Shown piece by piece: positions 4,494 to 35,200 of a stretch of 64,000 nt of DNA. The translations under genes were made by a program, and so were the position numbers. The stretch is taken from the NCBI GenBank assembly GCA_036172245.1, contig JAYWIR010000069.1, forward strand, positions 1-64,000, in the 5' to 3' direction. Origin of the DNA: Raillietiella orientalis (Eukaryota). The notes beneath the pieces are model-generated. The model did no database searches and was not told the origin of the DNA. It was given only the letters and a program-made list of their open reading frames with translations. Each line of letters opens with the position of its first letter. Positions within the stretch are counted from its first letter, which is position 1.

Positions 4494-5132
4494 ACCTTAA
4501 ACTTAAACTTGTGGAATCCAAAATCCGAGGTGCTGAAAGCGTGTCCTGCGGGCAAACTCCTCGCTGGCAAGCTCTGGAAAATTCTTTGGCTTCCAGAGGC
4601 GGAGGAAATCCGTTCTGGTGAATGATTCTCTCCTTGCATGAAACCCAAGATGGCAAGATGAACAACAGCAATAGAGAAGGTTCAGTTCGTTGTTCTCTTA
4701 CTAATTTACTAATTGCATCTGGTAAATACTGTTCTAAGAAAAAGAACATAGGTGGATCTCACGAAGGTGTGGTCAAGAAACGATAAGCGCGTACAGCTGT
4801 GGTCCAACGCAAGATCCCTTCTTTACGGTAGCTTAGCAAACCATCTTCGTTGTCGCTTGGGATATTTTAGAAGGGAGCACTGATTTGGTAGTTTCAATTC
4901 GTTAGCCGTGCACGTTCTATAAGCAGAGTTGGTTGCCGATCGGCTGAGGAGCAGTCAATCCCGGCATTGGATCCACTCCTTGAGGTTTGCCCCTGAAGAA
5001 TATAGAGTTCCCAGGAGAACTCGGAAGGCACTCGACCTGTCCGTCTCACCATAGCAAAGACATGCTTTTGTCTTTGCTGCCGACAGAGGACGGAGTCCGT
5101 AATGGACCGATCTCCCTCCATGCACCTCCACC

Positions 5133-7595
5133 CCAGAAACTTTTACTTTCGAGTCACTTTGAAACATTTCCTTGGCGGCATCTCTGTTCATTCTCTTTTT
5201 GTTCCTTCGTATTCAGGCATACGTATATGTACATATATTTGTGCGTGCGTTGCAAATGTGCAGCTTGCGATTGCAAATCAGAGGCAACGCAGTGATTTTC
5301 GATTCCCTGAGGAGTCTGTCGGCTTTCATCTGTAGAACTCCACGTTCCGGTCTGCATCATGGTGTTTTGAACACTCTGGAAAAAAAGGGCTTTCCGTTTG
5401 ATGGTTGCTGAAGGACACCGCACCTGAATGAAGAATGTGTTCCCAGCAGTACATAACCGTCGTATCGACTTCGTACATCGACGTTTGTATGGAGAGCCCG
5501 CCCTTAAGAATCCCTTGTATGAATTTAAGATGGGTACTCCGGTCACCCTGAGATTCTGCACGGGAGCCATCGCTGCTCAGCTGGTTAACCCTGTGCTCTT
5601 TTCACTGTTTTGGCTTTTCTGGTGGATGCCTCGGGCAGGACTTCCGGGAAACTGATCTTCCGTCTTCCTTCTTTTCCACATTCGGAAGCAGCAATTTCTA
5701 GTCCTTGGATCGAAATGCTGTTCTCGTAGAATCGTCCCAGCACGCGAAACCGTGGCCTTTTCTTGCAAGCTCTAAACATAACCTGCGCTGCATTCGACGG
5801 CGCATGTGCGAAAATGGTTTTGCCGCCAATGGGTGACTCATTCTTTTTGACCACACACTAATCGCGTTTCGGAAAAAGAATGCACACTCTCCACCTCGTC
5901 TTCCCTTCGTGGTTTGAGAGGAACCGTCTCAATCTCGGACCGGAGGAGAGCAAATTCCCTGAACCCTTCTGTTCTACCCGCTCACCCCCGATGTCTTTAA
6001 GGTCCCCTTGTTAGTCGGATTAATCGCACCCATTGCACCTCGCTGACACTCGCAGTCTACGAGGATGTTTTATCCGACAGGTAGTGAGGGATTCTGGTTT
6101 CGCAGAAGGCCGCGAAACCCTACAACTGTTTGCAGTCCGTTTTCATCAAAACACTTGTAGAAGAGGAAGACCTGAGAAAGAGGAGCGCACCGTTCGACGA
6201 GGGCGGCGCCGGCATGGCACATCTCGGCAGCGCGCGCAACCGAGCCATCTTGCACAGAATCCTGATAGCATCCCTTTCCCAAACAGGAGGAATGTCCTCT
6301 CTTCTTTTTCTGTATCAAGGAAGCCTTCATCGTGGAGGGATACGGCGAGAAGAGCATTATCGTCCATTATGCAGAGTACCATGTGTGCAGACGTCGTGCA
6401 CATCAAAAGCACAGCGCGCCAAATGCTGTTCTTCGACGCACAAGTGAGGCCATCGCCTACACCCTTCCTTGCCAACCGCTTCCGTTAAGGTTACATTTCG
6501 CATGTGGAATACCATCTTATGGAACCGCCTATACTCCAGGCACTCCAAGCCACTTTCTTCTTTCTCTTTTTCGCTAGTAATGGATCTCCGGAGCCTTCGT
6601 ATCAATGAAGAATTCCCCCTCGTCTTTTATTGCCCCAAGTGAAAGAGGAGCAAGAAGAAGAAGTCTTTGCGCGGAACTGCAAACGGCATTTCAGTGGTAT
6701 CGCAATTCGGAAGCAGCGGCGATGGCCACCCATGCACCAGCAGCAGTAGGAATTCGACGAGTGGCAGAAAGGAAGACGTCAGCTGAGATGACCCTCGCTA
6801 AACAAATCGGCGGAGTAGTTTCACTTCGACGGATATTGAAGACCGCACTCCCAGGGAGCCCAGCTCTGCTTCAGAAAAGCCTTCGGAACGCGTGTTCGTC
6901 ATCTCTCTTGTTCTCGCTCTGCTACCCGGATTGATGTCAGGGACAAGGCAGTGGACGTCCGTCAAGGAAGAGCTCCAGTCCCGTGGGAGACACTTCCACG
7001 TCATACGCAGAGACTTGCCTGAAAATCTGGAAAGAAGAGAACAAACAGTACCATCGAGTACGGTACGGATGCGGCCTTTAGACTGAAAGGAATGTGAAGT
7101 GGAATCTGCGCAGAGGGAAAGACGAGGGCATCTAGGGGAGACTCCAGTGGACCGTTCAGGATGACGAGAGCATCGCTGAGCCCCAAAGCGCCGGAATAAC
7201 TCGCTACTGACGTGTAGCTGATGGTTGCTCACCGGAAGAAACGAGCGGATTCCGAGCTCACCCAAGGAACAATGCAAGTTTTCCGGCAGCTTCGATTCGA
7301 CTATCATTTCTACTAGAAACTTCAGTCTGCACTGCCCCTGGCGACGAACTGGCGGCATGACTTCACATACTAAATGGAGCACTGCCGTGACCCTCCAGCC
7401 GAGAACTCCGCTGTTCATCTGGTGCTCGTGGGGCGGCCTTTCTTGCAAGATGAGGCAGCAAGCCAGCCGACTCGTAAAGCAAGAAGGACAGGAAAATCAT
7501 GCAGCACGCATCCAAAGCGGATCCGAAGGAGAACCAACTGAAGGGATCGAAAGCGTGCACGAAAGAAGCGGGTAAACGATGACCCAGCGTGTCCG
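5133..7595. repeat. Copy 1 of a 2463-bp near-identical direct duplication (partner 26741-29203)
   Basis: Sequence and ORF track repeat at an offset of 21608. Only one substitution was spotted (T5659 vs C27267). Confidence 0.97.
6937..7026 (-). pseudogene. Orphan duplicate of the FUK terminal exon (IFRQVSAYDVEVSPTGLELFLDGRPLPCP*), with duplicated AATAAA at 6626-6631
   Basis: Identical to 28545-28634, but no other FUK exons were found between this copy and the intact gene. Confidence 0.8.
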
Positions 7596-8089
7596 TGTCC
7601 CCCATCGCCCGAGAAGTCCGAGGAAGGTGAAACCCATCGTTGTCGCACGAAAGATCCCGCGATTCGTATACCGTGAACGCATTTGGAAGATGCAATGGAT
7701 TTCTCGCTTCGATAGAATTTTACAACTATCTTTCATGGTAATGGCTGCATTCATAGGGTTTGAGTGCATCCCTCGTCCTTACATGGCTGCTACACCGGTC
7801 AGCTAGATAGCTTCGCCAGAGATGCTTGAGGACTTCAATGGAGTGCAATGTTTATTGAAGCAGATGCAGATGAATGTCACAGTGACGTCTACTGCTCCGT
7901 GTACAGATACGTGTACAGATACGCTGCAGCTGCGTCACAGTTACGTGTGCGTCTGGAGGGGCCTTCGAGAAGGGATCACTGTGGGTGCTGGAGGGCGTTC
8001 TGTATATCTTTATAAGGATGCCCGCAAGTTCCTGTTTCGCGATTCCCAGATGGGGCTGTCCGCTACCCTCAAAAAGAGGACCACAGAAT

Positions 8090-10384: not shown

Positions 10385-11015
10385 TGCCACTCGGATACGC
10401 CGGGACGTTTATTTAAAACTCGTTTATGGTCAACACAAAACGTGATACAAGGCCCCACTAACGGCCACGCAATACACCGGACCTTCCGGACGCCGGGACG
10501 CAACCCGGTGTGACTCTCTTCGGCAGTGGAAGGGGATGGGGAAGAAAACAAAAATAAAAATAAGAAAAAAACAAAAAGAGCTTGGAGGGCCGGGAAGGGA
10601 TCACTGCCCACTGAGAGGAAAGCCCATCCTTCGCAAGATGTTCTCGAGGTCCATTTGCATCTGTCCCAGTTGGGGCCATCCGGCAGCTCTCTAAATGAAT
10701 CGAACTGCATAAGGGATGACTTCCATCTCGTTTGAATCAACATCTTCGTCCTGGGCATCACTCCATGCCGCCACGATGCCCCGGATGCAGCAAAGTGCTG
10801 CAAGGGCTGCGGCTGGCTGAAGGGCGTCCCACACGAACAGGAGTCGTAAAACGTCTCTGGGCACGCTGCCCACCCTGAGCCCGAGGGTCCTCCCAAAATG
10901 TTCCCAAAGGGGCCGGAGGGCAGCACAATCAACAAGAAGGTGGGGGAACGATTCACGCTCCCCGCACCTGGCACACTCAGGCTTTACTCTCCCCCGCATC
11001 CCTTCGATCCGGCGC
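10385..11015 (-). mobile_element. 5'-truncated Tx1/L1-like copy (CCHC knuckle, 3' UTR and terminal motif)
   Basis: CARCGERESFPHLLVDC; clearly homologous to 11780-12400; AATAAA at 10408-10413 on the minus strand. Confidence 0.85.
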
Positions 11016-11770
11016 TCCTGCAGAAGATCCACGTGATCACCGCGGAGAACGCCCAGGAGATAGAGAGGATCGCAGGGGGTCGTCTGTATTGGCAATGCGG
11101 CACTCGCAACAGCTGTGGTGTCGCGTTTTTCATGAAGCCAGCAGTCGCCGCCCTCGTCAAGGACGTACGCTTCGACAAGGACAGTCTGGTTGGCCAGCTT
11201 ATCCTTAGGTGGTCCGACTCGATCGACCTTGTCGTGACGAACGTGTACGCTCCGAGCGGAGGATGCGGGTACGGGGAACGTTCCCGGTTCCTCGAAACCC
11301 TGAAGCGCCACTGGCTGGTGGATACAAACGTACGCAAGGCACATCTGATCGGCGGGGATTTCAACATCCGCCTGCTCTCAGGTGTGCCTTGCGGGCAAAA
11401 AGACGTAGCCAACGAGCTGTGCGCTGCTATGCGCAAGCGCAACTTGTTGGGAAACCTACCGGAAATGGTCCAAAGCGTAGACCACGTCTTCCTTGACGCC
11501 GACCTGTGCCCACGGGTCGGCAGACGAGGGAAACTTCCGTCGACGCTATCGGACCATTTCCGGTTGATATTCGAAGTTATGCCTCGCGACAAAGGACCAC
11601 CATCCAGGGCGTGGCGTCTGCCCTGGGACTGGACGCGCATCTTAGGTGCGGCGGAACATCTCCGCCAATTCCTAGGAGGCGTCATTCTCCGGAATCTCGA
11701 AGACTGGGACCGCATGAAGGTCTCGGTCCGCGAGTTCTGCGAGAAGTTCCCTCTGCACCGCCTGCCCCGG
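11012..11770 (+). mobile_element. APE-type endonuclease domain fragment of a Tx1/L1-clade ORF2 (within ORF 10898-11839)
   Basis: Motifs GVAF, NVYAP, IGGDFN, VDHVF and LSDH, followed by WRLP...WDRMKVSVREFC, typical of the L1/Tx1 post-EN linker. The expected LQET reads LQKI, and the EN N-terminus is absent. Confidence 0.9.
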
Positions 11771-11779
11771 GGATTTAGG

Positions 11780-13925
11780 GTTACCACCCGGGTACGCATG
11801 GGGCGTTTATTATTAAAACTCTACAAAAACGTGGTATAAGGCCCCACTAACGGCCACACAACACCGGACCTGCCGGGACGCCGGGACGCAGCCCGGCGTG
11901 GCTCTCCTCGGCAGCGAAGGGGGATGGGGTAAAAACAAAAAGAAAAAATAAAAACAAAAGGAAAACAAAAAGAAGTTGGAGGGCAGGGAAGGGATCACAG
12001 TTCGCTGGGAAGAGGGCGCATCCTTCGAAGGAAGCCCTTGAGATCCATCCGAATGTTTCCCAGATGGGGCCATCGCGCAGCTCTCCGCATGAAGCAGAAT
12101 GCATACGGGATGACATCCTTCTCGTTTTGGTCCACTCCTTCGTCGCGGGTATCGCTCCAGGCCGCCACGATGCCTCGGATGCAGCAGAGTGCTGCCACGG
12201 CTGCAGATGGTTGCAGGACGTACCGCAGGAAGAGAAGCCGAAAAACGTATCTGGGCGCGCTGCCCGTTGGGGGCCTGAGGGTCGTCCCGAACCGTTCCCA
12301 TAGGGGTCGGAGGGCAGCACAGTCAACAAGAAGGTGAGGGAGCGATTCCCGCTCCCCACACCTGGCACATGCAGGATCCACCGCTCCCCTTGTCCAGTGG
12401 AAGCGGCGTGAGTTGCAGGGTAGACCCCAGTGCAACACCATCAACGCCGACTCTTGCCACTTAAGGGGAAGGATCCTGGATTCACTTAATACCGGGGGTC
12501 ACTTCAGCTCATCCCTGGGGATAGCGAGCAGCTCGCCCCATCTCAATATACCACGCAGGTGGACGCTCGGAGTCTTGGCATCGGCCAGCTCTTTGGTGGT
12601 CCACCCGCTCATCTTCTTCTCGGTGCCTCCGATCCGGCAAGAGACTTGCCACCTAGGCATCCGGCTGCCGTGAAGCGCCCTCCTAAGGAAGGGCATCGCC
12701 GTGGCGAAGGGTGTCCTTTCCGCCCACGTGCAACTCGCGGGAAATTCCAGTATTTTCCGCAGAGTGCGGCAGGCGTAATTGCTGCTTCGGAGGCAGTTCC
12801 GATTATCTTCGCTCCTCAGGTTTAACTTAGCCCATGTGCCAGCAGTCTTCTCCAGCCAGGCGGAGGAGTTGGCGGGGCTACAAACCATCCAGCTGCTCTC
12901 CTTGGCCAGGGTTGCCATGAGCCCAAGCAGTAGGCCGCATCTTCTGATCTTCCGGCCGGGGCACAGAAGAAAAGACGCGAGTCCATCGCACCGAGACACA
13001 CGGCTGGCGAGGAGGCGGGCCGGAATGCACCAAGGGGTGCACCACATCTTCGCCGTGATGGCCATGGTGCGCCATCGCAGCTGAATCTCCAAGCGCTTCA
13101 GCGTCAGGAGGCCAAGACCGCCGTCCCGACGCGAAGCGCATAAATCCTTCAGAGGCACACGAGGCCTCCCGCTGCCATAGAGGGCGATGCGGAGGAGGTC
13201 CTTGGTCCTCTTTTTGCATTCTATGGGGGCGGGACAGACAAAAAGCAAGGGGCTTAGGATGGGGGCCGCGAAGGCGTTCCAAACCGCGGCCCGTTCCGGC
13301 AATTGAAACTTGCCTTCCAGGAACGGGCCGATCGCCGTCTCGACTTTTCGGAGGCAGCTGGACCACGCTTCCGCAGGGGAATACTCCCCCAACGGCACAC
13401 CAAGGTGCTTGAAGTATCGTACCGTGGGGATCATCAAACGGACCCAGTCCGGCTGCCCTGCCCACGCCGCACCAACTGGCATTACGGACGACTTCGCCCT
13501 GTTCACCGTAAGTCCAGTTCCCCGACTCAGCAGGTCGAAGAACTCCTCGACCGCCGAAGCCGGGGTGGACATAGGGAGCAGCAGCGGAAGGTCGTCCGCG
13601 TATGCTGAAACGGCCGGCGTACCGGCGCAGTCCTGCGGCAGTTGCGCCAGAGTTTCCCTGTACGCTCTCAGTACCAACTCGAAGTAGGTACTGAAGAGCA
13701 AGAGCTCAGGCTGTCTCCCTGCCCTATCCCACGCCGCACCGGCACGCCGTGCACGGTCTGCCCGCTGAAAAAAAGATTGATTAGCGCGTCGCGCCAGCTG
13801 GAGCGCAGATAGGCCAATAATGAGTCCGGGAAGCTCAAACGTTCCAGAATCTCCAGCAGGAGATTCGGGTCGACGCTGTCGAATGCTTTACGCAAGTCGA
13901 CAGCGACCTCAAGGGCTCCCTCCCC
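11780..13925 (-). mobile_element. Tx1/L1-clade non-LTR retrotransposon, 5'-truncated: RT C-terminal half, CCHC knuckle and 3' UTR; disabled
   Basis: RT motifs DLRKAFDSVD, RGIGQGDSLS, AYADD and KHLG, then GGLGL and CARCGERESLPHLLVDC. It has a frameshift near 13703, an in-frame stop at 12499-12501, and AATAAA at 11806-11811 (minus). Confidence 0.93.
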
Positions 13926-13939
13926 CACCCGACCATCCG

Positions 13940-14620
13940 AGCCATGGCTGATGGACTCACCGGAATTCCGCCTGGGGATCCCCACGGAGAGGTACTTGAA
14001 GTACCTCGGCGTCCCGTGGGAGGACTTCTCCCCTCCAGAAGCATAGTGCGACTGTCTCCAGAAAAGTAGAGTTGGCGATTGGCCCGTTCCTAAAGGGCAA
14101 GTTCCATTTGCCGGAACGAGCCGCGGCGTGGAGCGCATTCGCGGCTTTTCTCCTTCTCCACCTCCTTTGTGCTTGTCTCGTCCCAAGAGAGGCTGAAAAG
14201 CAGACGAACGACCTCGTGAAAATCTCCTTGTAGAGCGACGAGAGGTCCCTAGTCCAGCTGAAGGATCCGTGTGCTCTGCGCAGGAACGGCAACCTCAGCC
14301 TCATGACGTAGCGCGTTGGCCACCGTCCTTTCCATCCGACGCGAGGCGTTGCCGGGATGCGGGAGGCTGCGTAGGGGATGTCAGCGCCTTCGCCGAGGCT
14401 CATCCGTTCCATGACAGCGCACCCCGCAGGAGTGGGTCTGCCAGGATAAGAGATGCTGTGGAGAGACTCTCTCAAAGTGTCCGTGGGGCAGAACAGTCCA
14501 CCATCAGGGGTGAAAGGAATTCCATGTTTTTTGGACCAGTAACAGCTCCACGCCACTTGCTCTAGGATAATGGCGCTGGCGTGTCTTTTCGTGCAACCGT
14601 CCTCATTGTCGGTGATTTAT
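13940..14620 (+). mobile_element. Degenerate inverted ORF2 fragment of the same family (post-RT region)
   Basis: RYLKYLGVPWEDFSPPEA*...VELAIGPFLKGKFHLPERAAAWSAFAA aligns with RYFKHLGVPLGEYSPAEAW...VETAIGPFLEGKFQLPERAAVWNAFAA on the opposite strand at ~13265-13420. Confidence 0.8.
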
Positions 14621-15678: not shown

Positions 15679-18600
15679 TCACGGGTACACAGGAGCTTCC
15701 TTTGGCAATAGAGGTGGCAAAGTGCCATATTCTTCGGGTGGAGAAATCTTTGGAGTGTGAAAATTAATTTGGTCCCTCTTGAAGTCTACTTGAACAGTTA
15801 TTCCGAGTAGACTCTCTGTAGACAGTTGCAGCTGAGTAGTTGTGGAAGGGACGAATGTGAGGAAGCATTTATTGTCCATTGGCTAGAACGAGATACACGT
15901 GAAGCATTTCCGAAGAGATGTCCGACAAGAGAAGGAGTTGCCCACACAACCGAGCGGATCGAATGTCCACGGCAAGCCGATAGACAGAAGTCTGCTGTCT
16001 ACGCATGCGCGTGGCGCAAGCAAAGCGCTTACGTGTGCGATAGCAGCGGGCGAGACGATGCCACGCAAGAGCGAATGGTAGAACACCTACGAGGCGCATG
16101 CCAATATGCCAGCCACATGATGCCCTTTCATGACTTTCGATGGCCTCGATTCGGCAATTCCGAGGGATTGCGTCGGTTTTTCGGGATTCTCTCGCCATCG
16201 GGAAAGATGGGTTGCAAGCAACGTCCACCTAAGCCACAGGGGGCACGCACGGCTGCGCTTCGCTCCTTCTTCTTCAACACCGCAACTGCAGCTGAATCTC
16301 ATATAGGATCTGTGATAACAACTCGCAGGACACTACGAGATGTTCCTGAAGGTGTTTCGGCTCGAATGCTGCTGGTCAGCCCGTGTCGCGGCGCCTCACG
16401 CGCTGCGAGGTCGAGGAAACACCTCGTGTTAAAGATCCTCCGCGAACTCGGGCTAATGCGACACGCTGGGGAGATGCGACGCGGCTATCGCGGATGGCAT
16501 CCAGCTGTGGTCCTGTTCTTCGCGCGGTCGAAGCCTTCTCCAGAACACCTCCAAGCAACTTCGCGGAACCAGTTTACCGGTCGTCCGTGCGTTTGGAGGT
16601 GCGAGTCCACTCGAATCAGGGACATGGGGGTTTCTAGAGAGCGCTTAGGTTTCTTGCACGCGGGTGGAGTGGGGCGCGAATGCAGCGACCCGAAGACCGA
16701 CTTTCAGGAAGCCCTCAACTTGCGGCGAAGAAGGCGTCCGCCTTACCTCAAAGATGTATTGATTTAATTTCAACGTGATTGTGTATTTTTTGGTGATAGA
16801 GATCTGCACCAAAACGTTCGTTTTCGGTTCGCAGTTCACCTGGAAGGGATTTTTTTTTTTTCAGTGGATTGTCAAAGATCAGTGGAGACCAACTTGATAT
16901 AATCCGTATTGCATTTTCTTCGCCTTGGGATCTAATGTGACGGCCAGTTCTCTCACGAATTTTTCAGGAGCCGCAGCCAAATAGCTATCCAATCTCAGGT
17001 GAGTCGTGATATCCTTTGACGTGTGTTTCACCCTTCCGCCTTCTTCTATGGTGAGTCTGGGAGGAGAGAAGCGGATTAGGGTTTCTTGGCAGGAAGCTCA
17101 ACTGGCGTCTGCAGTGGCAACACCAGTAGCTCAGGAAAAGAGAACGTGAAGAGGACAATCGTCAAGGGTTTGCCCGTTCACCAAGGGAAAGGATCCTTGA
17201 ACGGAGTCTGCCAATCTGGGTTCGCAGTGGCTAGAATAGGAGTGGGGACCATCTCATAAAGGGGGAGCAAGTGCAGTCGGCGGCAAGCGCATAAGGTGTT
17301 TCCTTATGCACATCCACTCCAATGATGCCCCTTTCCTCGATTTAGCGGCGAAGAACAGCATCTCACCTGTGTGTTTTAAACGAATAAGTCTTTTTGCCTT
17401 TAGGATTGAGGAGCTTCACGGAGTCGTCAAAACTGCTCAGCAGGTCCCCGTGGAGTGGATCCAGAGTGAGAGTTCCACCTTCTCTGGAATTCCCGTGAGG
17501 AAACGGATCTCATCCGGCGAGTGCGTCTTCTTACCTATTCAACTTCACTGTCATCTTCAAAGAGGAAAGGTTTTTCTTCCGAATGATTTTTTTTACGTAA
17601 TCCCTGTTGATGGGAAAGGTGCCCATGTACATATTGAGATTTGGGATGGGGTTGTTGAGCGGAGGTGAGTAAGACGAAACAATGCGTATTGGGACGGTTT
17701 CTGGTAACAGCAAGGAACTCCTACTTTCACTGGTCATGACCTGAAATGAATTCCGCTTACAGAGGTGGTCATGACCGGGTTGCTTCGCTTCTCCGGAAAC
17801 TCTACTCGGCTTCTCCAAAGCACGCTTTTTACCCCCTAGTTCCAAACCACGCCGTGCAGAGGGGCGCAGTCGACCTCTTGGACCGATCGCAACGCACACC
17901 GAACCGCCTCGTCTCTTTCGGTTTCGCGCGAGCATTTCAAGTTTCTCTTCTCGCCAGGCAGCAGCGGCTGGCAGCCCCTAGGTTCCTAGGACCGCCGGCA
18001 CCGAAGGAAAGGAGAAAGCACGCAACTCGGTCACCAAGGTGCCACAGCACTCCGTGAGAACAAGCCGCTCAAAGTCTTTCCAGAGGGATGGAACTGCAGA
18101 GCATCACCCATCGACGTCGTCGCTGAGGGAACTGCAGCTGGACCCATTCCCGTGAAATTCCGTCATCAATATGCCAGAGCCCTCGACGCTCGACAAGCAG
18201 AGAGCAGTTACCTGAAGCGAGTCATTTCCGACAAAGGACTGGTGTTGCGTGCCGAAGACATTCGTTCTGTCCACTTTTTGGAATTGAAAGGTCTCGGAAT
18301 CCGCGTTGCTGAATCTTAAACGACTTTCTGCAATGGAAAGGCAAACTTGGAAGTGGCAGTTGCGCGCACTGAGGTCGCTTACTGCAAAATGCAGTCGGGC
18401 AGCAGTGGCTCAGCGCGACCACACTCGAGTACTCTCCAGCATCCAGGACAAGGGGCAAATGTTGGTGTGTAGATCCCAGAATAGCATCCAGAATGTAGAA
18501 ACTCTGCATTATTGGAGTGTGAAGGAGGCGGAAGGGCTGCACTTACTCTCACATACTGAAGATGAAAGGTTTCTGTCTCAAGTGGAAGTTGAGCTGCCCT

Positions 18601-18708
18601 AGGGAAGTGCAAGGAAGGATCACTTCCGGGTCACCAGCAAGCGATCCCTCAGCACCCTTACCAGGAAACCGCTATCAAAGCGGTGAAGAATGCGGCGGAT
18701 GTCCACAT
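15679..18708 (-). CDS. Secreted pepsin-fold (peptidase A1-like) protein, probably catalytically inactive; 9 exons: 18708-18662, 18598-18547, 18503-18383, 18327-18212, 17740-17535, 17483-17367, 17056-16894, 16839-16747, 15882-15679; 372 aa
   Basis: All 8 introns are GT-AG and phase-compatible, giving an uninterrupted 1119-nt CDS with signal peptide MWTSAAFFTALIAVSWA. A1 landmarks appear in order: FYILDAILGSTHQHLPLVLDAG, C..C, SETF, FVGNDSLQV, GGTLTL, YLAAAP, YQVNC, YI...KC, VDFKRDQINF. AATAAA lies at 15494-15499 (minus). Confidence 0.8.
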
Positions 18709-24270: not shown

Positions 24271-26740
24271 GAAAACAACTCTTTTATAAGTGAACAAAAA
24301 GAAAAAAACAAGGCTGCGCGACCGTCTGCAGCCCCAGGCAATCGCAAGAGAGGCGTCCCGAAAATTCAGCTGCATTTCTGTACCAACCGAAGGTGGTACA
24401 ACTGCAGGTCACGTCAGGAGTGGAGAGTGGCGCGTGGGTGCACGGGCAGCACTGTGCATAGGTACAGAAGCGACACGGATGCCATTGCGAAATGCACGAT
24501 CCCTCAGACGATCACAGCACCAGCAGCGCCATTCACGCTGGGCGCAAGCAGGCATTCCTTTCCCTCAGCGTCCAAGCCCTTCCAGCAAATCCATGCTCAC
24601 AATTGCATGGCACTCGGTGAGCGCCATACAAGCACGAACAACCACGCCAGAGGCGCATGCGCCTGGCCTCCTTCGACCCATTGAGCGTAACCACGGAAAA
24701 AGAACATCAGAAAAAAGAATCATGAACTTCTGGCAGCGCTCGTTTGCTGTGCTCATGGTTATTTTGTCGGCTTTCAGGATTCGCGATTACGCGAGATTCC
24801 TATACGCTGCCCTGACGGCTCCTTCGCTAGACGAGGAGGCGCGCGAGTAGCTGCTCGCCTTCCCGCCCTCCGTTCGTCGCCCAACAAGGAGCTTTTTAGC
24901 CTCCGTTTCACGGACCGCGGAGTTTACGCATTCATGCGTGCTCCTCCCTCACCCCTCATCCCCTCAAGTCCCCCTGTTAGCCCCATTGCCTTCACCCAGT
25001 CCTCCCCGCTGACGTTCGCTGCCTGAGAGAACGCCTCAGCTCGCATCGACCAGGTAGCGAGGCCGGGGCTCCTCCTCCGCATCCAGCCGAGCAACTCAGC
25101 AGCTGATCGCAGAACACCTCCACCGTAACACCAGCAGAGCAGGCAGACCGGAGAAAGAGGGGCGCGCCGGCCGACGTGGGCGGCGCCGGCATGGCGCGCT
25201 CCCATCTCCGCAACAAGTAAATTCGCTGGCAACGGCTCTCTGCTGAGACATCACCACCAGCCGACAGGATACGCCTCCTTCCTTATCCTGCCACTAGCCC
25301 GGCTGCTTCTTTTGCTTCCGCTCTTCCGTTACCTGCAAGCTGCTGTCGGCAAAGTTGACGTGTCGCCCATAAAGGGCGTAGGCGAATATCAAGCATGAAA
25401 CGGAAAACTTTGTTGGCAAAGCTGCTGCCCTGCCTCTTTCTTCAGCAGTGATGCTGCGTATCACTTCACCACAACGCGGCACTCGACCAAAGCAACGTTT
25501 ATGTCAATCCCACTGACTGCCCGAAGGCATTCGAGTTTGCTGGTCGCATTCTTGGAGCGATGTCCACCCGACAGTGCACCACGGACGCGCCAGAGGAGCG
25601 TGGTCCACATTATCCGCACAGGACGGCTCAAAACGGGTGAGTGCAGCACACTTCTGGTGAGTGCTTTTGTTGAGCCATTCTTGTAGAGTTAACCGTGCTC
25701 GGTGCTGCTTCCAAGCTGCAAAGGACGGGCGTTCCACCGAAAGAAGATGGCATGCTCTGACATGGTGGCAGAACGGCAACTCGGTCGCAGCGGTGCTCCA
25801 ACCCTTTTTCTGCCGTGGGCGGACGGTTGGACAAAGGATACGGGGCATCCAGGTGCGCCACAATCCCTCGTGCTGTTCTCTGCGGGCCACCTCTGCACGC
25901 GCCCTTCAGTTGCCGTTACCGCCAGCAATGCACGCCTTTCACTTCCTACAGACAGCATCCAGAGGATACTCCACTTTTACTGCATTGGTTTACTACCAGG
26001 AAATAAAGGAAACAGCTGGAGGAGAAGTTGCCCTACTTGACGAATCCTGACATATCCTTGCTTCCGTTTGCCTTCCTGCGTAGTCCCTATCGCGTACTGC
26101 TTTAAGTACAGAATTCTTTCAGAATCGCCTGGACACGGACTGCAGCCTTGCTGCATTCGCTCGCATATTCCAGGCTTCCTGTTGTAAGCGTGGAAGGCTC
26201 AGGCAAGATGTGGAGATTCCCTTTTGGGAACCACTTCGCGTTTCCATATTGAAATGCGCTCTTGATGATCCTTTTCGCTTTAAAGATAATGTCGTCTTAA
26301 CGTTCTCTACTTTCTCCTTTTATCATCTTTCTACGCCGGAGTGCACACTTTTAGTTATTAAGCTGCAGGTTGTACCTTCTAACTCACCTGCTCTTACTTG
26401 CCCTCTATCTTTGCGCTGGAACACAGCAATGAACTTTGAACTCCATTCAACATTAACTGCGGGCGCGGAAGCATCAAACTCTTGCAGCAAGCACCGATAA
26501 AGCGCATCTGCGCAATGCAAGATGAATCCTGCAGAATCCTGTAGCTTTCATTTACAGACATCCCATTGCAGGAAGTTCCCACAAACGATATCAACAAAAA
26601 CAGTGCAGGAAGAGAAGGCGTAATGTAGAATGAATCACTTCAACCTTCGTTGTTTAAATGAGTAATGTGAGACTGCTAAAGCTTTCATCCGTTTTGCGGT
26701 GGAGGAAATCTTGGAGCTGTTTTTTCACTCTCACCAAAGT

Positions 26741-29203
26741 CCAGAAACTTTTACTTTCGAGTCACTTTGAAACATTTCCTTGGCGGCATCTCTGTTCATT
26801 CTCTTTTTGTTCCTTCGTATTCAGGCATACGTATATGTACATATATTTGTGCGTGCGTTGCAAATGTGCAGCTTGCGATTGCAAATCAGAGGCAACGCAG
26901 TGATTTTCGATTCCCTGAGGAGTCTGTCGGCTTTCATCTGTAGAACTCCACGTTCCGGTCTGCATCATGGTGTTTTGAACACTCTGGAAAAAAAGGGCTT
27001 TCCGTTTGATGGTTGCTGAAGGACACCGCACCTGAATGAAGAATGTGTTCCCAGCAGTACATAACCGTCGTATCGACTTCGTACATCGACGTTTGTATGG
27101 AGAGCCCGCCCTTAAGAATCCCTTGTATGAATTTAAGATGGGTACTCCGGTCACCCTGAGATTCTGCACGGGAGCCATCGCTGCTCAGCTGGTTAACCCT
27201 GTGCTCTTTTCACTGTTTTGGCTTTTCTGGTGGATGCCTCGGGCAGGACTTCCGGGAAACTGATCTCCCGTCTTCCTTCTTTTCCACATTCGGAAGCAGC
27301 AATTTCTAGTCCTTGGATCGAAATGCTGTTCTCGTAGAATCGTCCCAGCACGCGAAACCGTGGCCTTTTCTTGCAAGCTCTAAACATAACCTGCGCTGCA
27401 TTCGACGGCGCATGTGCGAAAATGGTTTTGCCGCCAATGGGTGACTCATTCTTTTTGACCACACACTAATCGCGTTTCGGAAAAAGAATGCACACTCTCC
27501 ACCTCGTCTTCCCTTCGTGGTTTGAGAGGAACCGTCTCAATCTCGGACCGGAGGAGAGCAAATTCCCTGAACCCTTCTGTTCTACCCGCTCACCCCCGAT
27601 GTCTTTAAGGTCCCCTTGTTAGTCGGATTAATCGCACCCATTGCACCTCGCTGACACTCGCAGTCTACGAGGATGTTTTATCCGACAGGTAGTGAGGGAT
27701 TCTGGTTTCGCAGAAGGCCGCGAAACCCTACAACTGTTTGCAGTCCGTTTTCATCAAAACACTTGTAGAAGAGGAAGACCTGAGAAAGAGGAGCGCACCG
27801 TTCGACGAGGGCGGCGCCGGCATGGCACATCTCGGCAGCGCGCGCAACCGAGCCATCTTGCACAGAATCCTGATAGCATCCCTTTCCCAAACAGGAGGAA
27901 TGTCCTCTCTTCTTTTTCTGTATCAAGGAAGCCTTCATCGTGGAGGGATACGGCGAGAAGAGCATTATCGTCCATTATGCAGAGTACCATGTGTGCAGAC
28001 GTCGTGCACATCAAAAGCACAGCGCGCCAAATGCTGTTCTTCGACGCACAAGTGAGGCCATCGCCTACACCCTTCCTTGCCAACCGCTTCCGTTAAGGTT
28101 ACATTTCGCATGTGGAATACCATCTTATGGAACCGCCTATACTCCAGGCACTCCAAGCCACTTTCTTCTTTCTCTTTTTCGCTAGTAATGGATCTCCGGA
28201 GCCTTCGTATCAATGAAGAATTCCCCCTCGTCTTTTATTGCCCCAAGTGAAAGAGGAGCAAGAAGAAGAAGTCTTTGCGCGGAACTGCAAACGGCATTTC
28301 AGTGGTATCGCAATTCGGAAGCAGCGGCGATGGCCACCCATGCACCAGCAGCAGTAGGAATTCGACGAGTGGCAGAAAGGAAGACGTCAGCTGAGATGAC
28401 CCTCGCTAAACAAATCGGCGGAGTAGTTTCACTTCGACGGATATTGAAGACCGCACTCCCAGGGAGCCCAGCTCTGCTTCAGAAAAGCCTTCGGAACGCG
28501 TGTTCGTCATCTCTCTTGTTCTCGCTCTGCTACCCGGATTGATGTCAGGGACAAGGCAGTGGACGTCCGTCAAGGAAGAGCTCCAGTCCCGTGGGAGACA
28601 CTTCCACGTCATACGCAGAGACTTGCCTGAAAATCTGGAAAGAAGAGAACAAACAGTACCATCGAGTACGGTACGGATGCGGCCTTTAGACTGAAAGGAA
28701 TGTGAAGTGGAATCTGCGCAGAGGGAAAGACGAGGGCATCTAGGGGAGACTCCAGTGGACCGTTCAGGATGACGAGAGCATCGCTGAGCCCCAAAGCGCC
28801 GGAATAACTCGCTACTGACGTGTAGCTGATGGTTGCTCACCGGAAGAAACGAGCGGATTCCGAGCTCACCCAAGGAACAATGCAAGTTTTCCGGCAGCTT
28901 CGATTCGACTATCATTTCTACTAGAAACTTCAGTCTGCACTGCCCCTGGCGACGAACTGGCGGCATGACTTCACATACTAAATGGAGCACTGCCGTGACC
29001 CTCCAGCCGAGAACTCCGCTGTTCATCTGGTGCTCGTGGGGCGGCCTTTCTTGCAAGATGAGGCAGCAAGCCAGCCGACTCGTAAAGCAAGAAGGACAGG
29101 AAAATCATGCAGCACGCATCCAAAGCGGATCCGAAGGAGAACCAACTGAAGGGATCGAAAGCGTGCACGAAAGAAGCGGGTAAACGATGACCCAGCGTGT
29201 CCG
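26741..29203. repeat. Copy 2 of the 2463-bp duplication, containing the in-context FUK last exon and 3' UTR
   Basis: Same sequence as 5133-7595. Confidence 0.97.
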
Positions 29204-32200
29204 CTTCCACCATCAGGCGAGAAATCAGCAGGTGAAGCCCATGTTTACCGCAGGAATAGAGCGAACGTGCGGATTGGCAGCACAAATGGAATGTGGCTCT
29301 AGAAATCACTGTTTGACCCCGTGGACGTGAGCTTTTCGCGGCTGGTCAGTGGAATGGAACGATGCCACGCAGTTAACCGGGAGAGACCTCTCGGCAGCGA
29401 GCGAGATCGCCGGCAGTAAGAGAAGTGCTTCTTCTCCTTGTCCTCACCCCTCTTTCTCCCTGAGCACTCCGTTCGGCACGGCACGCCTACTGGCGTGAGG
29501 AAGCGAACCAGAGGGAAATCGAGACTCCGGCCGAAGCCTCCGCAAGTGAGAACAGAGAACCCATGACCTCCTTCCATTGAGTGGGAAGCGAGCGCAGTGG
29601 GCGCCACCTACCTGGATGCTCCGGAGGCGTTCAAGGATTGCGTCCTTCGAGTGGGGCTCCTTGGAAATCGCGAGAAGAAATCCCCCACCTCCTGCCCCAG
29701 CCAGGACCTGAGTCGCAGTGCAGAAACCAAATGTGACCCCAGTCGGCCTGGGACGCACCTGTCCGTGCAAGATGGGTTTTATAGCCGCCATCATTCCGGC
29801 CACGTACGCCGATTCGCACCCGGGGGCTATGATCTTCTTCAGGGTCCAGTATTCGTCCAGGAGCCTCCCCAGCTCCCGCATGTCTCCTTGGGAAAGCAGT
29901 AAGGGTTTCGAGAAGGATAGAGGAGCAGACTGGGTTGCGCGCCATCCCACCCAACCTTGCGAAACAGATCGCCTCGAAAGGAAGAGGCGAAATATCTTCG
30001 CCTCGGCACTCTTCGTCAGGGACCTCGGCATGACCGAGGTCCCTGCTCGTGCACATGCTCGCACGCTTACATGCAGAAGGGGAATCGAGCAAACCCCGCT
30101 TGACCTCCGCTATAGGACACTGCAGGCTCAAGAACTTCCTCCGCTGAGTCAAAGGTGCGCGCGAAAAAAATGCACCGGAAGCCTTCGACCGCTGCGGTCG
30201 TCCTTTTCTTCTGTGACCAGCGGAGGCCGCAGTCTCTTCTGTTCGCCAACAGAACGGACGGTTGCTCACAGAAGCAGATCATCCCCACGCTCGGGCGCCA
30301 TTCCCTGAGGCGCTGAAAGGGAAATCTCGAGGAACTCCAAAGGACGCAGAGGCCCGTTGGCGCGAGCATCCGCACACATTATGTGTCGCGCCCTCTCCAG
30401 GCAACGCTCTTGCGCAAAGTCCAACGTCCACGAGCGTTCTTCGGAGCGAAGTGTGCAAGGGTTCACAGCAGCAGCAGCAGCCGTTGCTCACTCTTCGGCA
30501 CCGAAGGTCGCCCTCCAGGAGGACGGGGAAAGCGCCACAGTGTCCTTTTTTCACCGTTCTTTCCCGCGGGCGCCTTCGCGCACCGCTCGAGGACTCCTCA
30601 GGCGCCATCAACGCCCACCGCGTTCTTGACCCCATCTCCGCAGATTCCGGAGCGCGAGGGCATCCTAGGGAGCACGCGAGCGGTAGCAGCATCCCCAATG
30701 GACGTGGCTAGGAGACGGAGGGCAGAGCGTTCGGTAATTCCAGCAGGAAGCGTGGATCATCAACCCGATGGAGGAAAAGAGAGCGTCGGCAGGCGTTACG
30801 GAAAAGAGCGAGAAGCACGGATGTCTCCCTGGTGACGCGGCGAATGCCGTCCGACCTTCCCCTTGGGTTGCGCGGCATCCTCTGCGCTTGCACAGTCCGA
30901 CAGGAGAAGTCCGAAACACGACGAAGACGACGATGTGACTCTTTGCCCAACTCTTTGCCCGACACCACTTGGAGGCGGAGGCGAACGTCCGGAACGTCGC
31001 TTACGTCATCACCCCGTCCGTTCATGCTAGAGGCATCTCAACTCTAAGTATCCGAGAGGTCACGCTGCATGAGAGCGAGAAAATCGTTCGTCCACCGTCC
31101 CGATCGACCGACCGGCTCGGCGATGACCCCTTTCGCTCACTCCCGTCTCTTCCCTCCGCGTTGCCTCGAAGAAACTTGCAAGGAATCCCCACGCAACGCT
31201 GAGGAGCCAGGTTTCCGGATCCTTGGACGCTCCCCTCGGTCGTGCGGATGAAGTCCGGAGGGTACGAGATCCCCGTGCACGAGGCGACACGCCGGCAGCG
31301 GTCGGGATGCGGGAAGAAAAAAAAATGGTGGTAGAGAGCCGGCCTTTGCACCCCGCAGGCCCAAGCAGCCATCGGATCGCATCTCGCGGGCCGCCGTCCA
31401 GTCGCGGAGACAAAAGAGAGAGTCGCCCCCTCTTCCGGACGCTGCTGACTACTGCACGGCAGAGATGAGAGCTCCAGAACCCCGCCCCATTTCTCCTCGG
31501 AGCTCACCGCGCCTCACGGCATCGCAGGTGCCCGGGACAAGTTGACGAAGCTCCCGGAACGCGAGCGCCATCCCACCCTCGTTGGTGTACCAGCAACGGA
31601 TGACATTCTGGAAGGCAAGGAGGAGGGGAACGGTTGCGAAAAGGGCGAGCGGCGGAAGGGGTGGAACAGACCTGGACAATGTTCCTCGCCAGGCGAACCT
31701 TCCCGGTGTACAGCAGGACCATGTGGGCGTTGAGGGTGGCCACGGCACGAGCGCTGCACTGGACGGATTCCACTTCCACCTTCAGGGGAGAGCCGCCGTC
31801 GTCGCTGCCGCGTATAGACGCGCCCTTAGAGGACCCCAGGCACACGCCGGCGTACAGGCCGCCGAGCTGGTCTTGCCATCCACCCGCGGTAGTCAGCATC
31901 TGTTCCACGCACAGGGCCTGTCCGGGAAAGGGAAGGAGGAAAAGTTTCTCCCCCTTTGCCGGTAACTTTTCCCTTTACCGCATGCGCGAGGTCCAGGCGG
32001 GTGAACGTGGTGCCCATGAGCGTCCATACCACGGACAAGACCGCGGAGATGAGGATGCTGCTGGTGCCCAGCCCGGATCCTAGAGGCACCTCCGACGAAT
32101 GCTCCAGTAGGAGTCCTCCACCGATCTGCGCGCGAAGAGAGAGGAGACGCGGAAGATGCGATTCTTTGGCGAAGATTCGATCGCAGGCGGGCGCGCCGGG

Positions 32201-35200
32201 GGAAGGGACCACGGAGCGGGGGAGAACTGACCTTGTTCTCCAGCTGCTGCCGCAGGTTCGTCGCAGAGGTCACGTCCACGACTCCGGCGAACACCAGCAC
32301 GGCCTTGCAGAGCACACCTCTGGAGGCAGGGTCGCGGATATCGCCCACGTCCTCCAGCCGGTCCAGTGTCAGATCCCTGGAGCGCGCACTGCAGCAGCGC
32401 TCCCTGAGGACGACGCGGAACTCGCGAGTGACCTCGCCCCTTACCACCAAGGGCTTCTGCAAAAGAAGGGAGGGGTCACTTTCACACAAGAGCCGCGGGC
32501 GGCCGCAAGAGGGTGCCCAGCAGACACCGGAGGCGGTGCGATTTTCGTAGCCACCCGCGGCGGCGGCGCCAGAAACGAGGGGGGATAGCAAGAGAGAGAC
32601 GTCGGAAAGGGGTCGCTTGAGGTTCGCGGTCCCTCCTGCGCCGCAGGCGGCGGTGGCGGCTCCGAAGCCCCCTGCCCACCTGGCCGTTGATGAGGACGCC
32701 GACGTTCAGCACGGCTCCCCCCTGCTCGTAGCAAATGGGCGGGGTGTCACTCCACCCGCCCTGCAGATCCACGCGCACGGGGCACCGTGCCTCGGCGACG
32801 GCTCCGGGACCCACCGCGTGGGTCACGGAACCCGCGGGCCCTATCCACCGGCGCACGGACATGACCGTGCGCTGGACAAGTAGCTGGGCTGCCCTCTCGT
32901 AGTGGCGAGCCGCACGCAGCATTCGGCACGGGTGGTCCATCCAGCCGCGCCTCTCCGCGGCGAGCTCCAGCACGCCTCCCTGGAGGTCGCCCGCCTGGGA
33001 GCGGATGGTCGTGAGCAGGATGCGGCCGCCGACCCCGACCTACCTCGAGAAGACCGAAGGCTTTGCCCCAAGCCCTGTTGTTCCCGGGACCGCTGCGCAC
33101 GACGAGGGGGCCTCCGGCAAGGCACGAGAGAACGTCCGCCGCGAGAGTTAAGAACCGGGACGTGACGTGCGCTGGACCCCGCGAGGACACCTCTTCGAAG
33201 CCCTGGAGCAAGGAAGGCCACCATCCCTCTTCGGAGAAAAAGACGGCAGGAGTGAGCGAGCGAAGGGAGGGGGCGAGGGGGGAAGTATGCAAACCCGCAC
33301 ACGCTGAGACGATGAGGGGACGCCAGGAGATGCCATCCAGGCCGCGGCCAGCCGCCAGCGCGCCCTGCAGGGACGTCCGGGGGATTCGCCTGGAAGCCTC
33401 GACGTGGGCCCCGACGTCGCTCGAGGTTAGAAGCCGCCTCAGGCTGTACCTCCTCGGCTGGGCCTTTGCCCACGCGGATGAGACCCGCAGCCTCTCGTGG
33501 TCCCTTGATATTAGGGCCTCCACGTAGTCCAGGGCCTCGGCTGGCCCTAGAGCCGGGTACAGGGCGGCATCGTAGAGAGGTCCGCCGCGGCCGATCCATA
33601 GATCCTCCGGGGAGAAGCCAGTGGAGGCCAGGAACTCCGACCAGGGCGCGTTGAGGAAGGTCGCAGCGTCCGAGACGTCCTTCGGGCAGTCCGACGTTCC
33701 AAACACGGCCAGCACTACGACCGCCCCCGCGGCGGAAGCGGGAGTCTCCCTGACTTGGAACTGGATGACGGCCGTTTCCCTAGCGACGCGCATGTCGCGG
33801 TCCTGGAGAGACGGGGGAACGAGAAGGTAAAGACGGAGAGCTAGGAAGAAACCGGCGAGCTGACCTTGAAGAGGGAGAAGTCCACGCCGCATAGGAAGCA
33901 GCCGTCCTCCACGAACACCCGCCGCGGTCCGGGAACCATGCAGTGCTGCATCGTGGAGCGTCCCTCTACCTCCAGGGGCACACCTTCCCCAACCACGTTC
34001 AGCAGATCCAGCCCATGTGCCCCACTCCCTCTCTCCGGGAGCTGACTGAACGACGACAACAGCGTCCCGCGGTAGGAGTCCAGAGGCAGCGAATCGTCCA
34101 GATAGACATGCCGGCCGGTCAGCGCAGCCGCGTGAAGTCGGTAGCTCCTCAGGGAGCTCCATAGTGCCTCCCTGGAAACGAGCCAGGGGAAGGCGCCGCT
34201 GCCGTCGCCTCCGTCCCCCTTCCAACGGCCTCACCTGAATTCCCCCATGGTTTCTCCGGAGCAGGCCGAAGAGTCGTATCCCTTGGCAGCGTGGTAGGCC
34301 TCCCCGAACGCCCCCGAGCAGAACGCCTCCCGAGTCACTCCCGGACACATGGGAGGGAGGAGGTCAAAGAACAGGGAGACCTGGAGGGGGCCGTAAAAGT
34401 CCTCCCTGGGAGGAGGAAAGAGCGCGCGCGCGCACCTGCAAGGCGTCGCCTCCGGCATCGACGCCGCAATAGGTGCACCGGTCCAGCAGACAGGCTCCCG
34501 GAAGCGTCAGCAGTCCCTCCGCGAGGGCCGTCGACAGGAACACCACGCCGGCGAGCAGCTCCACCAGTCCGTCCGAGCGGGTCAGCTCCTCTGCGGCACG
34601 GAGGTGAGCGGAAGAACAGGGGTTTGGTTTCGCCCCGGGTGACGGGGAAGTCCCGAGTGGACAGCGGATAGAGGAAGGGGGGAGGGGGGAATGCAGCACG
34701 TTCCCATGTTACCCCCTACGCACCCAAGGCGGCAGCAGTCCCCATGTATACGATGGTGTCCACCTCCTTGCCGTCCGGGCCGCGGACGATGACACCATGC
34801 CTGGTGGCGTAGGAGACCGTACCGGGCACGCTAAAGAGGACAGCGTCCGCTGAGCGGTCCCAGGAGAGGGAAGCGCCTCCTTCGGCAACGTTCACGTCCA
34901 GGAACACGTCCGTGCTGCAGACCCAGACTCCTGGCTCACGCCCCCTCTTCAGCTGCAGCCAGCACGAAAACACCGGAAAAGAGAGGGACGTCAGCACCGG
35001 CTCAGGCGAGAAGTCTGCGTCGTCCGAGCAGTGCACGATGGATGACAGAGCGGAGATGCCGTCGAAAGACAGCTGGCGGCCGCGGAGGCAACCAAGGTTG
35101 TGGAGACTCAGCACCAAGATGGGACCGTTCGCGGTTCCACCCCCGTAACCCACCGCCCTGGAGGCAGCAGCAGCCTCCTCGACATGTGGAACCGCCAGAC

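Follow-up and report, generated by a model that had tools for sequence, protein, structure and literature searches.

The question raised by this locus is whether a set of small exons on the minus strand of the window (the whole 64,000-nucleotide stretch of DNA that was analysed) forms a genuine gene for a pepsin-like protein, as an earlier note on this DNA had claimed, and whether such a protein would still be a peptidase.

A nine-exon gene on the minus strand

Reading the minus strand from 18708 to 15679, nine exons and eight GT..AG introns give an open frame of exactly 372 codons, so that the gene and the 372-aa ORF of the earlier note were reproduced exactly, with canonical splice sites at all eight introns. 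The coding part of 1,116 bases contains no stop or frameshift in any of the nine exons, and the splice dinucleotides are intact at 16 of 16 positions. The donors of seven of the eight introns are in the top 11 of 158 GT sites, that of intron 7 is weak, and five introns form a tight size class of 43-63 nt. There is no in-frame ATG upstream of the ATG at 18708 before a stop is reached. Base asymmetry between codon positions is pronounced in the spliced coding sequence (chi-square p = 5e-5, compared with 0.65-0.89 for the three long introns), a weak indication, given that any open frame carries a built-in bias. The GC content of the exons (0.37-0.53) is lower than that of the introns (0.53-0.57, with one exception at 0.39) and far below the roughly 0.63-0.67 that codon-position values indicate for the fucokinase-like exons nearby, an unusual pattern in a coding gene. 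The gene structure, together with the family homology described below, identifies the locus as a real, intact nine-exon eukaryotic gene.

Features of the nine-exon gene and its product (all on the minus strand)
Feature	Position	Description	Basis
Exon 1	18662..18708	ATG at 18708; hydrophobic signal-like N-terminus, residues 1-16	Spliced model
Exon 2	18547..18598	Short mature N-terminus leading into first beta-strand; no prosegment	Model and HMMER/hhalign
Exon 3	18383..18503	N-lobe psi-loop	HMMER/hhalign and ESM Atlas
D54-A55-G56 (exon 3)	18443-18435	First motif	HMMER/hhalign and ESM Atlas
Cys67 and Cys73 (exon 3)	18404-18384	On first conserved disulfide loop	Alignment
Exon 4	18212..18327	Flap region	Alignment
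F98-G99 (exon 4)	18256-18251	Where A1 peptidases have Tyr75-Gly76	Alignment
N-x-S (exon 4)	18226-18218	Sequon	
Exon 5	17535..17740	Mid N-lobe; least certain exon	Strong acceptor and donor; length suits A1 spacing (hhalign)
Y-M-G (exon 5)	17629-17621	Close to expected N-lobe hydrophobic-hydrophobic-Gly site	
Exon 6	17367..17483	C-lobe start; turn of G-G-x-L-x-L type	hhalign
Exon 7	16894..17056	C-lobe psi-loop	Alignments
R241-L-D243-S244-Y245 (exon 7)	16995-16981	Replaces D-[TS]-G-[TS]-[ST]	Alignments
Exon 8	16747..16839	Cys277 at 16833-16831	HMMER/hhalign
Exon 9	15679..15882	Cys311 at 15867-15865; stop TGA	Spliced model
L330-L331-G332 (exon 9)	15810-15802	On C-lobe hydrophobic-hydrophobic-Gly motif	hhalign
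Pro-rich tail (exon 9)	15756-15682	25 residues	

The exon 5 region allows 713 alternative open splice models, and neither homology searches nor the splice-free position test described below confirmed this exon. A phmmer search with exon 5 against 1.84 billion representatives returned Ig-repeat and VWA-repeat proteins only, which were rejected as summed weak repeats.

The proposed setting in retroelement debris is based on two sub-gathering Pfam matches located 1.4-5 kb away, to Exo_endo_phos (22.8 bits) and RVT_1 (23 bits). The long introns of the gene have no match elsewhere in the window, and Rfam and tandem-repeat scans of the window found nothing. An identical 2.5-kb repeat lies near the gene. 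The fucokinase-like ORF of 538 aa, searched with 'longer' lengths, had no match at 1e-5 in a collection of 5.8 billion protein clusters, and a UPRTase-like exon had no PDB match at 0.001. A candidate second A1-like gene (59036-56514, minus strand) was set aside as being at chance level; it shows weak colinear matches, but no spliced chain, no A1 match in the PDB and no paralogue by tblastn.

Homology to the pepsin family

The product was compared with a local HMM built from 48 metagenomic ORFs encoding PF00026 proteins (all eight of those tested were PF00026, with E <= 1e-90). The spliced product scores 22.1 bits against this profile, whereas 500 shuffled versions and the reversed sequence reach at most 1.3 bits. 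The match consists of two colinear domains, with residues 32-112 lying on HMM positions 10-91 and residues 199-322 on positions 178-297, and hhalign joins both lobes in a single alignment of residues 32-354 with columns 12-338 (302 columns, P 2.1e-4). BLASTP against the 48 sequences gives colinear matches at about 24% identity (best E 0.002), and identity to canonical A1 proteins is about 21-24%. The significant match to our own 48-sequence profile thus covers both lobes in the right order, as expected of a member of family A1, and the pepsin-family homology proposed earlier is borne out over the two lobes by profile score, colinear domains, hhalign and BLASTP.

Some of this evidence is independent of splicing. 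When unspliced exon-bearing ORFs were placed on the profile, six of the seven fell within 2 columns of their colinear position; that of exon 6 falls on template columns 164-173, as expected (hhalign). Exon 3 alone, in the ESM Atlas, has a first match of 0.95, and at least 28 of its 30 matches are in clusters carrying PF00026. A conserved Tyr-x-Val-x-Cys stretch arises only once exons 7 and 8 are joined. In our own spliced profile alignment the N-lobe came out highest of 68 tiles across the window (24.4; the median was 16.0), although the method is a weak tool that recovered the N-lobe only, missed the C-lobe and shifted the splice points slightly (18370/18314).

The fold appears to have been retained to a degree, with 27 of the 89 strongly conserved columns kept, in addition to L-L-G and all four cysteines of two disulfides. 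Cys67/Cys73 and Cys277/Cys311 align with conserved Cys columns as the conserved disulfide pairs, which we take to correspond to pepsin disulfides 45-50 and 249-282 (pepsin numbering). Judged by these alignments, the gene product is a real, very divergent homologue of the A1 family.

Searches with single exons were largely negative. Seven single-exon ORFs matched no Pfam family at E up to 10, and in hhalign no exon ORF was individually significant (ranks 71-1332 of 1374). In phmmer searches of the PDB, exon 3 found no A1 chain (only armadillo-repeat and AP-endonuclease chains, E 0.56-1.1), and exons 4 and 7 found nothing. Exon 7 had no usable match in the ESM Atlas, and in the 5.8-billion-cluster protein collection neither exon 3 (14 candidates) nor exon 7 (59 candidates) had a candidate that scored. 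No orthologue or paralogue was found with exons 3, 5 and 7 in protein collections or by tblastn in the window.

Active-site motifs and the N-terminus

Asp32, Tyr75 and Asp215 are described as the active-site residues of A1 peptidases (PMC2761423). The first motif of the present protein, D54-A55-G56, keeps the aspartate but has alanine for threonine and so departs from D-[TS]-G, and the usual serine that follows is replaced by glutamate. At the flap, Phe98 is aligned to Tyr75. Both the D-A-G motif and the Phe-Gly flap had been proposed earlier and both stand in the alignments. A literature search for the D-A-G motif in A1 proteins gave nothing relevant. Phenylalanine is given as a common replacement at position 75, and among the homologues treated in that source none with Phe75 is reported as shown to be active; the Tyr75Phe change in rhizopuspepsin is described as weakening activity while leaving some (PMC2761423).

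The second motif is harder to place. In both the HMMER and the hhalign alignment, Asp243-Ser244 falls on D-[ST]; the next two positions (Gly and Thr) are deleted and a tyrosine follows. An ungapped MAFFT alternative instead puts Arg241 on the catalytic aspartate. Neither hmmalign nor MAFFT --add gave a usable whole-length alignment, and they are kept only to show this ambiguity. The glycine is absent in every alignment. The earlier description of this motif as unrecognisable is therefore correct in that D-[TS]-G is broken, but goes too far in that two methods still place Asp243-Ser244 there; the second catalytic aspartate may survive as Asp243. The claimed loss of the terminal Ile-Leu-Gly motif was not upheld, since L330-L331-G332 aligns to the hydrophobic-hydrophobic-Gly motif of the C-lobe. 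In the N-lobe, Y-M-G lies within exon 5, which aligns poorly, and is 1-2 positions away from the aligned site.

Residues 5-16 have a mean Kyte-Doolittle value of 1.91 and there is no further hydrophobic stretch in the product, in agreement with the signal peptide claimed previously; the likely cleavage region extends into exon 2. This predicted N-terminal signal peptide probably directs the product to the secretory pathway. The first aspartate is at residue 54, compared with residues 79-167 (median 96) in the seed proteins (32 of 48, those with a judgeable N-terminus), and there is therefore no room for a prosegment. The N-terminal prosegment of the zymogen, which is expected of a competent A1 peptidase, is thus missing, as had been suggested.

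Alternative readings and the probable role of the protein

That the open frame is a chance construct, assembled from frequent GT/AG sites and carrying pepsin motifs by accident, is very improbable. The absence of any singly significant exon (Pfam, PDB, hhalign) would suit it, as would the many open alternative splice models, those of the exon 5 region alone being numerous, and a similar local profile score (21.9) at 59036-58929, where there is no other gene support. It does not sit well with a whole-protein score far above those of 500 shuffles, with the matching of both lobes in the correct order, with the colinear placement of the unspliced exon ORFs, with the Asp-like character of exon 3 taken singly by an independent method (ESM Atlas), or with the strong donors and the narrow size class of five introns.

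An active but atypical aspartic peptidase, with an Asp54 and Asp243 dyad in D-A-G and D-S-x contexts, a Phe flap and no zymogen stage, is unlikely. The second D-[TS]-G is without its glycine in all alignments, the substitutions in and after the first motif are Thr to Ala and Ser to Glu, the ungapped alignment exchanges the second aspartate for arginine, and few of the strongly conserved columns survive (27/89); set against this are the aspartates that HMMER and hhalign place at both catalytic positions, the retained C-lobe hydrophobic-hydrophobic-Gly motif, and the frequency of Phe75 and partial activity of Tyr75Phe rhizopuspepsin reported in PMC2761423. Less likely again is a silent relic, a once-functional divergent A1 gene that is unexpressed or newly pseudogenised and whose frame has not yet been hit by decay. 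Exons 3 and 7 are common to no protein in the 5.8-billion-cluster collection, the exon base composition is unlike that of neighbouring coding sequence, and weak LINE-like fragments and the 2.5-kb repeat lie close by, all of which would be in its favour. A frame of this length, open over nine exons with every splice dinucleotide intact, speaks against it, however, as does the retention of the start codon, signal-like segment and four disulfide cysteines, and an intact frame at only about 21-24% identity would imply long purifying selection on the fold.

The reading that we favour, with modest confidence, is that of an intact nine-exon gene for a very divergent pepsin-superfamily protein that is without a prosegment, probably secreted and degraded in its active site, and most likely a binder that does not cleave. 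Its signal peptide would route the product, presumably made without an inhibitory prosegment, into the secretory pathway, and the protein would adopt the two-lobed beta fold typical of the family, held in place by the two conserved disulfides. Peptide cleavage is most likely absent because of the D-A-G motif, the Phe flap and a C-lobe loop in which Asp-Ser is not followed by Gly-Thr (or in which Arg takes the place of Asp), and loss of catalysis is thus the most likely outcome as far as the sequence can indicate. The cleft between the lobes would then serve as a binding site, as in known non-peptidase A1 homologues, and by this analogy binding is the more likely use of it.

Compared with pepsin-like A1 peptidases of the cathepsin D or pepsin type (MEROPS A1, PF00026), the protein shares the colinear profile match in both lobes, two disulfide pairs, the C-lobe hydrophobic-hydrophobic-Gly motif, a signal-like N-terminus and an aspartate aligned to the first catalytic position; two of the three aligners also place an aspartate at the second. 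The protein differs in its low identity (about 21-24%), in its first motif (D-A-G where D-T-G is usual), in the Phe that replaces Tyr75, in the broken second D-[TS]-G-[TS], and in having no prosegment and a 25-residue Pro-rich C-terminal tail. Characterised bacterial pepsin homologues, too, are not known to carry a prosegment. Their genes are intronless and prokaryotic, whereas the present gene is eukaryotic, with nine exons, a signal-like N-terminus and disulfide cysteines, although phenylalanine at the flap is shared with some of them. Some bacterial homologues with Phe75 and degraded hydrophobic-hydrophobic-Gly motifs are described as probably inactive (Rawlings and Bateman 2009, PMC2761423). 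Family A1 takes in non-peptidase homologues, the pregnancy-associated glycoproteins (PAGs) of ruminants and a xylanase inhibitor being named among them (PMC2761423); the cockroach proteins Bla g 2, Per a 2 and Lma-p54 are described as inactive aspartic proteases (PMC9541408), and the PAGs as comprising active and inactive forms with binding retained (PMC6221303). The present protein resembles these and the wheat xylanase inhibitor TAXI-I, by description only, in being of the pepsin family with an altered active site; all of these known proteins are regarded as binders and not as enzymes. For the PAGs, however, identity to pepsin-type enzymes is given as about 50% (PMC6221303), against about 21-24% to canonical A1 proteins here. 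For kinship of the TAXI type, the TAXi_N labels of exon 3 in the ESM Atlas are non-discriminating, as canonical seeds match TAXi_N too.

We tentatively consider it possible that the gene belongs to an orphan lineage of pepsin-fold pseudoenzymes that are secreted, lack a prosegment and have been selected for fold and not for chemistry, with the cleft acting as a ligand binder or the protein as an enzyme inhibitor. Collections of billions of sequences yielded no predicted protein that shares exon 3, 5 or 7. The gene finding itself is sound, and is likely to reflect another reuse of a protease fold and no new kind of system. The finding would gain greatly in value if the organism were parasitic or symbiotic and its protein bound a host molecule. 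If expressed, the gene would add a very distant branch to the pepsin-fold proteins in which catalysis has been abandoned or strongly altered, and would illustrate how such genes, split into many small exons, can escape protein catalogues.

Gene model and splice signals

The A1-like gene, a nine-exon gene on the minus strand (18708 to 15679) relating to the pepsin-like aspartic peptidases, was rebuilt from splice signals (Table), and the length and end points claimed in the earlier note proved exact: once joined, the nine exons give a single 372-codon frame that closes with TGA, and the quoted peptide pieces are all visible in a three-frame translation of the minus strand between 19000 and 15400. 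All eight introns have GT..AG borders, five belong to a tight size class of 43–63 nt (the other three are 310, 471 and 864 nt), and seven of the eight donors are within the top 11 when the 158 GT sites are ranked on a simple consensus score, the exception being the weak GTTGGT of intron 7. Reading upstream from 18708, a stop is reached without any in-frame ATG on the way. The spliced coding sequence shows asymmetry between codon positions (p 5e-5) and the long introns show none; the three long introns also have no match elsewhere within the window.

The exons have a G+C content of 0.37–0.53, mostly below that of the introns (0.53–0.57 for seven of the eight; 0.39 for intron 7) and far under that of the neighbouring fucokinase-like coding sequence (0.56–0.74 by codon position); exons poorer in G+C than introns are the opposite of the usual pattern. 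We also note a stop-free, Arg-rich frame of 318 codons on the plus strand (15811–16764), antisense to the gene, which lies within intron 8, overlaps the start of exon 9 and matches no Pfam family.

Features of the A1-like gene and its surroundings
Feature	Position	Strand	Basis
Exon 1, A1-like gene	18708–18662	minus	splice-signal model
Exon 2, A1-like gene	18598–18547	minus	splice-signal model
Exon 3, A1-like gene	18503–18383	minus	splice-signal model
Exon 4, A1-like gene	18327–18212	minus	splice-signal model
Exon 5, A1-like gene	17740–17535	minus	splice-signal model
Exon 6, A1-like gene	17483–17367	minus	splice-signal model
Exon 7, A1-like gene	17056–16894	minus	splice-signal model
Exon 8, A1-like gene	16839–16747	minus	splice-signal model
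Exon 9, A1-like gene	15882–15679	minus	splice-signal model
Exo_endo_phos, weak LINE-like	10850–11836	plus	22.8 bits, under Pfam cut-off
RVT_1, weak LINE-like	13671–14294	minus	23 bits, under Pfam cut-off
Direct repeat, 2.5 kb, two copies	5108–7634 and 26716–29242	same orientation	essentially identical
Fucose-pyrophosphorylase domain, two long ORFs	34719–36107, 32750–34363	minus	Pfam
GHMP-kinase N and C domains	31829–32269 and 29447–30109	minus	Pfam
UPRTase-like exon, isolated	52656–53003	minus	PF14681, 35.6 bits

Homology to family A1

Taken one at a time, the exons lack the length and the conservation needed for recognition. Pfam searches with seven exon-bearing ORFs and an E limit of 10 returned no family, phmmer searches of the PDB with exons 3, 4 and 7 no A1 chain, and a word-indexed search of 5.8 billion clusters with exons 3 and 7 no match. 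The sole positive among the single-exon tests came from the ESM Atlas, where exon 3 alone gave a top match of 0.95 with 174 shared features, a score that shuffled proteins are stated by the tool to reach about once in 100, and had no fewer than 28 of its 30 matches in clusters carrying PF00026; exon 7 gave no usable match there.

For the spliced product a local A1 reference was made by scanning a metagenome collection with a degenerate pattern for the ten-residue A1 motif. This yielded 120 loci, 49 of them with a full-length ORF and a second D-[ST]-G-[TS], and an HMM was built from 48 of these 49 ORFs (47 distinct rows; pairwise identity 25–100%, median 41%); all eight seeds tested were PF00026 at E ≤1e-90. 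The HMM matches the product in two colinear domains (residues 32–112 on HMM positions 10–91 and 199–322 on 178–297), and hhalign gives a single local alignment of residues 32–354 with columns 12–338 of 360 (302 columns, 21% identity, P 2.1e-4, probability 46%). Colinear matches at about 24% identity also come from a BLASTP comparison with the 48 seeds, the C-lobe reaching a best E-value of 0.002 and the N-lobe one of 0.006. As judged from these alignments, the spliced product is a member of family A1.

As a control for freedom in choosing splice sites, all 1374 stop-to-stop ORFs of at least 30 aa in the window were aligned unspliced to the same profile. The exon-bearing ORFs rank 71 to 1332, none significant alone; the best matches of exons 3, 4, 6, 7, 8 and 9 fall on template columns 12–47, 59–100, 164–173, 228–255, 268–286 and 319–340 respectively, and six of the seven exon ORFs lie within two columns of the position predicted by exon order and length, exon 5 alone missing. 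The binomial estimate for this agreement, about 2e-8, is rough and partly dependent on the full-length alignment. In a spliced profile alignment of simple design, the N-lobe comes first of 68 window tiles with 24.4 (median 16.0, runner-up 21.9), and the C-lobe is missed. In the exon 5 region 713 alternative open models score 21–26 bits vs 22.1 for the model of the earlier note, and homology gives no validation of this exon; it is accepted because its acceptor and donor are strong and because, with an exon of this length, the spacing usual for the fold is regained. A chance construct is highly improbable, and the gene is real as a coding unit, being intact, properly signalled and homologous to the family.

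Surroundings within the window

Pfam was run on 132 of the 144 window ORFs of at least 110 aa, the other 12 being two duplicates in a repeat copy and ten alternative-frame ORFs over fucokinase-like exons. No paralogue of the A1-like gene is present in the window, for which Rfam and tandem-repeat scans were empty. Downstream of the gene, at 10.8–14.3 kb, the only Pfam matches are the two weak LINE-like ones, on opposite strands; a 300-nt direct repeat (10545–10844 and 11939–12238, 77% identical) lies beside them. Both these fragments and the gene are bracketed by the copies of the 2.5-kb repeat, which are 21,608 bases apart and 98.5% identical over the called span including its edges (100% in a 300-nt sample). 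ORFs inside the repeat match no Pfam family, and the two copies may stem from a recent pair of mobile elements, from segmental duplication or from an artefact of assembly.

The gene at 29447–36107 (minus strand; G+C about 65%) encodes a fucokinase/GDP-fucose-pyrophosphorylase-type protein, for which no relatives were found among longer proteins at 1e-5. G+C content ranges from 34% to 67% per 2-kb step, and the UPRTase-like exon sits in the AT-rich third of the window (about 35%). At 59036–58929 on the minus strand, a 36-residue open stretch directly after an AG ranks second in the window by local score (21.9) and resembles the A1 segment after the first catalytic motif, with S-x-x-L-W followed by two Cys four residues apart. 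It has no spliced continuation, no A1 match in the PDB and no similarity to the main A1-like gene, and is taken as a chance resemblance, though it may be a decayed fragment.

Active-site anatomy and possible function

As read off the hhalign and HMMER alignments, the product retains 27 of 89 strongly conserved family columns. The degraded first motif and altered flap described in the earlier note are both apparent, as D54-A55-G56-E57 vs D-T-G-S in the N-lobe and F98-G99 vs Y-G. In the C-lobe both profile aligners place D243-S244 on D-[ST], with the next two positions (Gly and Thr) deleted before Y245, while the MAFFT alternative, which is ungapped, aligns the catalytic Asp with R241 and the Gly with D243. 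The failure of the second motif thus stands, D-[TS]-G appearing under no alignment, but the second Asp may survive, since the profile aligners put D243 in its place. The supposed loss of the terminal ILG-type motif is contradicted by L330-L331-G332, which occupies the hydrophobic-hydrophobic-Gly motif of the C-lobe; the N-lobe counterpart is uncertain, with Y-M-G nearby in exon 5. Cys67/Cys73 and Cys277/Cys311 fall on the columns of two conserved disulfides. The N-terminus is hydrophobic (mean Kyte-Doolittle 1.91 over residues 5–16), and the product has no further hydrophobic segment. The first Asp is residue 54, vs 79–167 (median 96) in those seeds (32 of the 48) whose N-terminus can be judged, so a prosegment of the usual size cannot fit, as had been claimed. 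A pI of 9.1 makes the putative mature protein basic; it also has two sequons of the N-x-S type, an additional Cys and a Pro-rich tail of 25 residues.

Measured against a working A1 peptidase, this protein falls short on four testable points: the two D-[TS]-G motifs, Tyr75 and the prosegment. Rawlings and Bateman (2009; PMC2761423) give Asp32, Tyr75 and Asp215 as the active-site residues, report that Tyr75Phe weakened rhizopuspepsin and that activity had never been shown for any Phe75 homologue, and count PAGs and a xylanase inhibitor among the family's non-peptidases. Bla g 2, Per a 2 and Lma-p54 are classed as inactive aspartic proteases (PMC9541408), a binding role having been suggested for some of them, and certain PAGs are inactive yet still bind (PMC6221303). 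Because of these failed features and precedents, we favour, at somewhat better than even chances, a predicted secreted protein that would bind through its cleft. The main rival, an atypical active enzyme, to which the possible survival of D243 is relevant, we consider unlikely; next, and slightly less likely still, comes an unexpressed relic.

The observation in the earlier note is confirmed and its interpretation borne out only in part, the results speaking neither for nor against the role in host interaction that it suggested. Judged by its sequence, the product adds a very divergent new member to the non-canonical A1 homologues, a kind already known; its importance would grow if it were shown to be expressed, if orthologues proved to be under selection or if its source were known to be a parasite.
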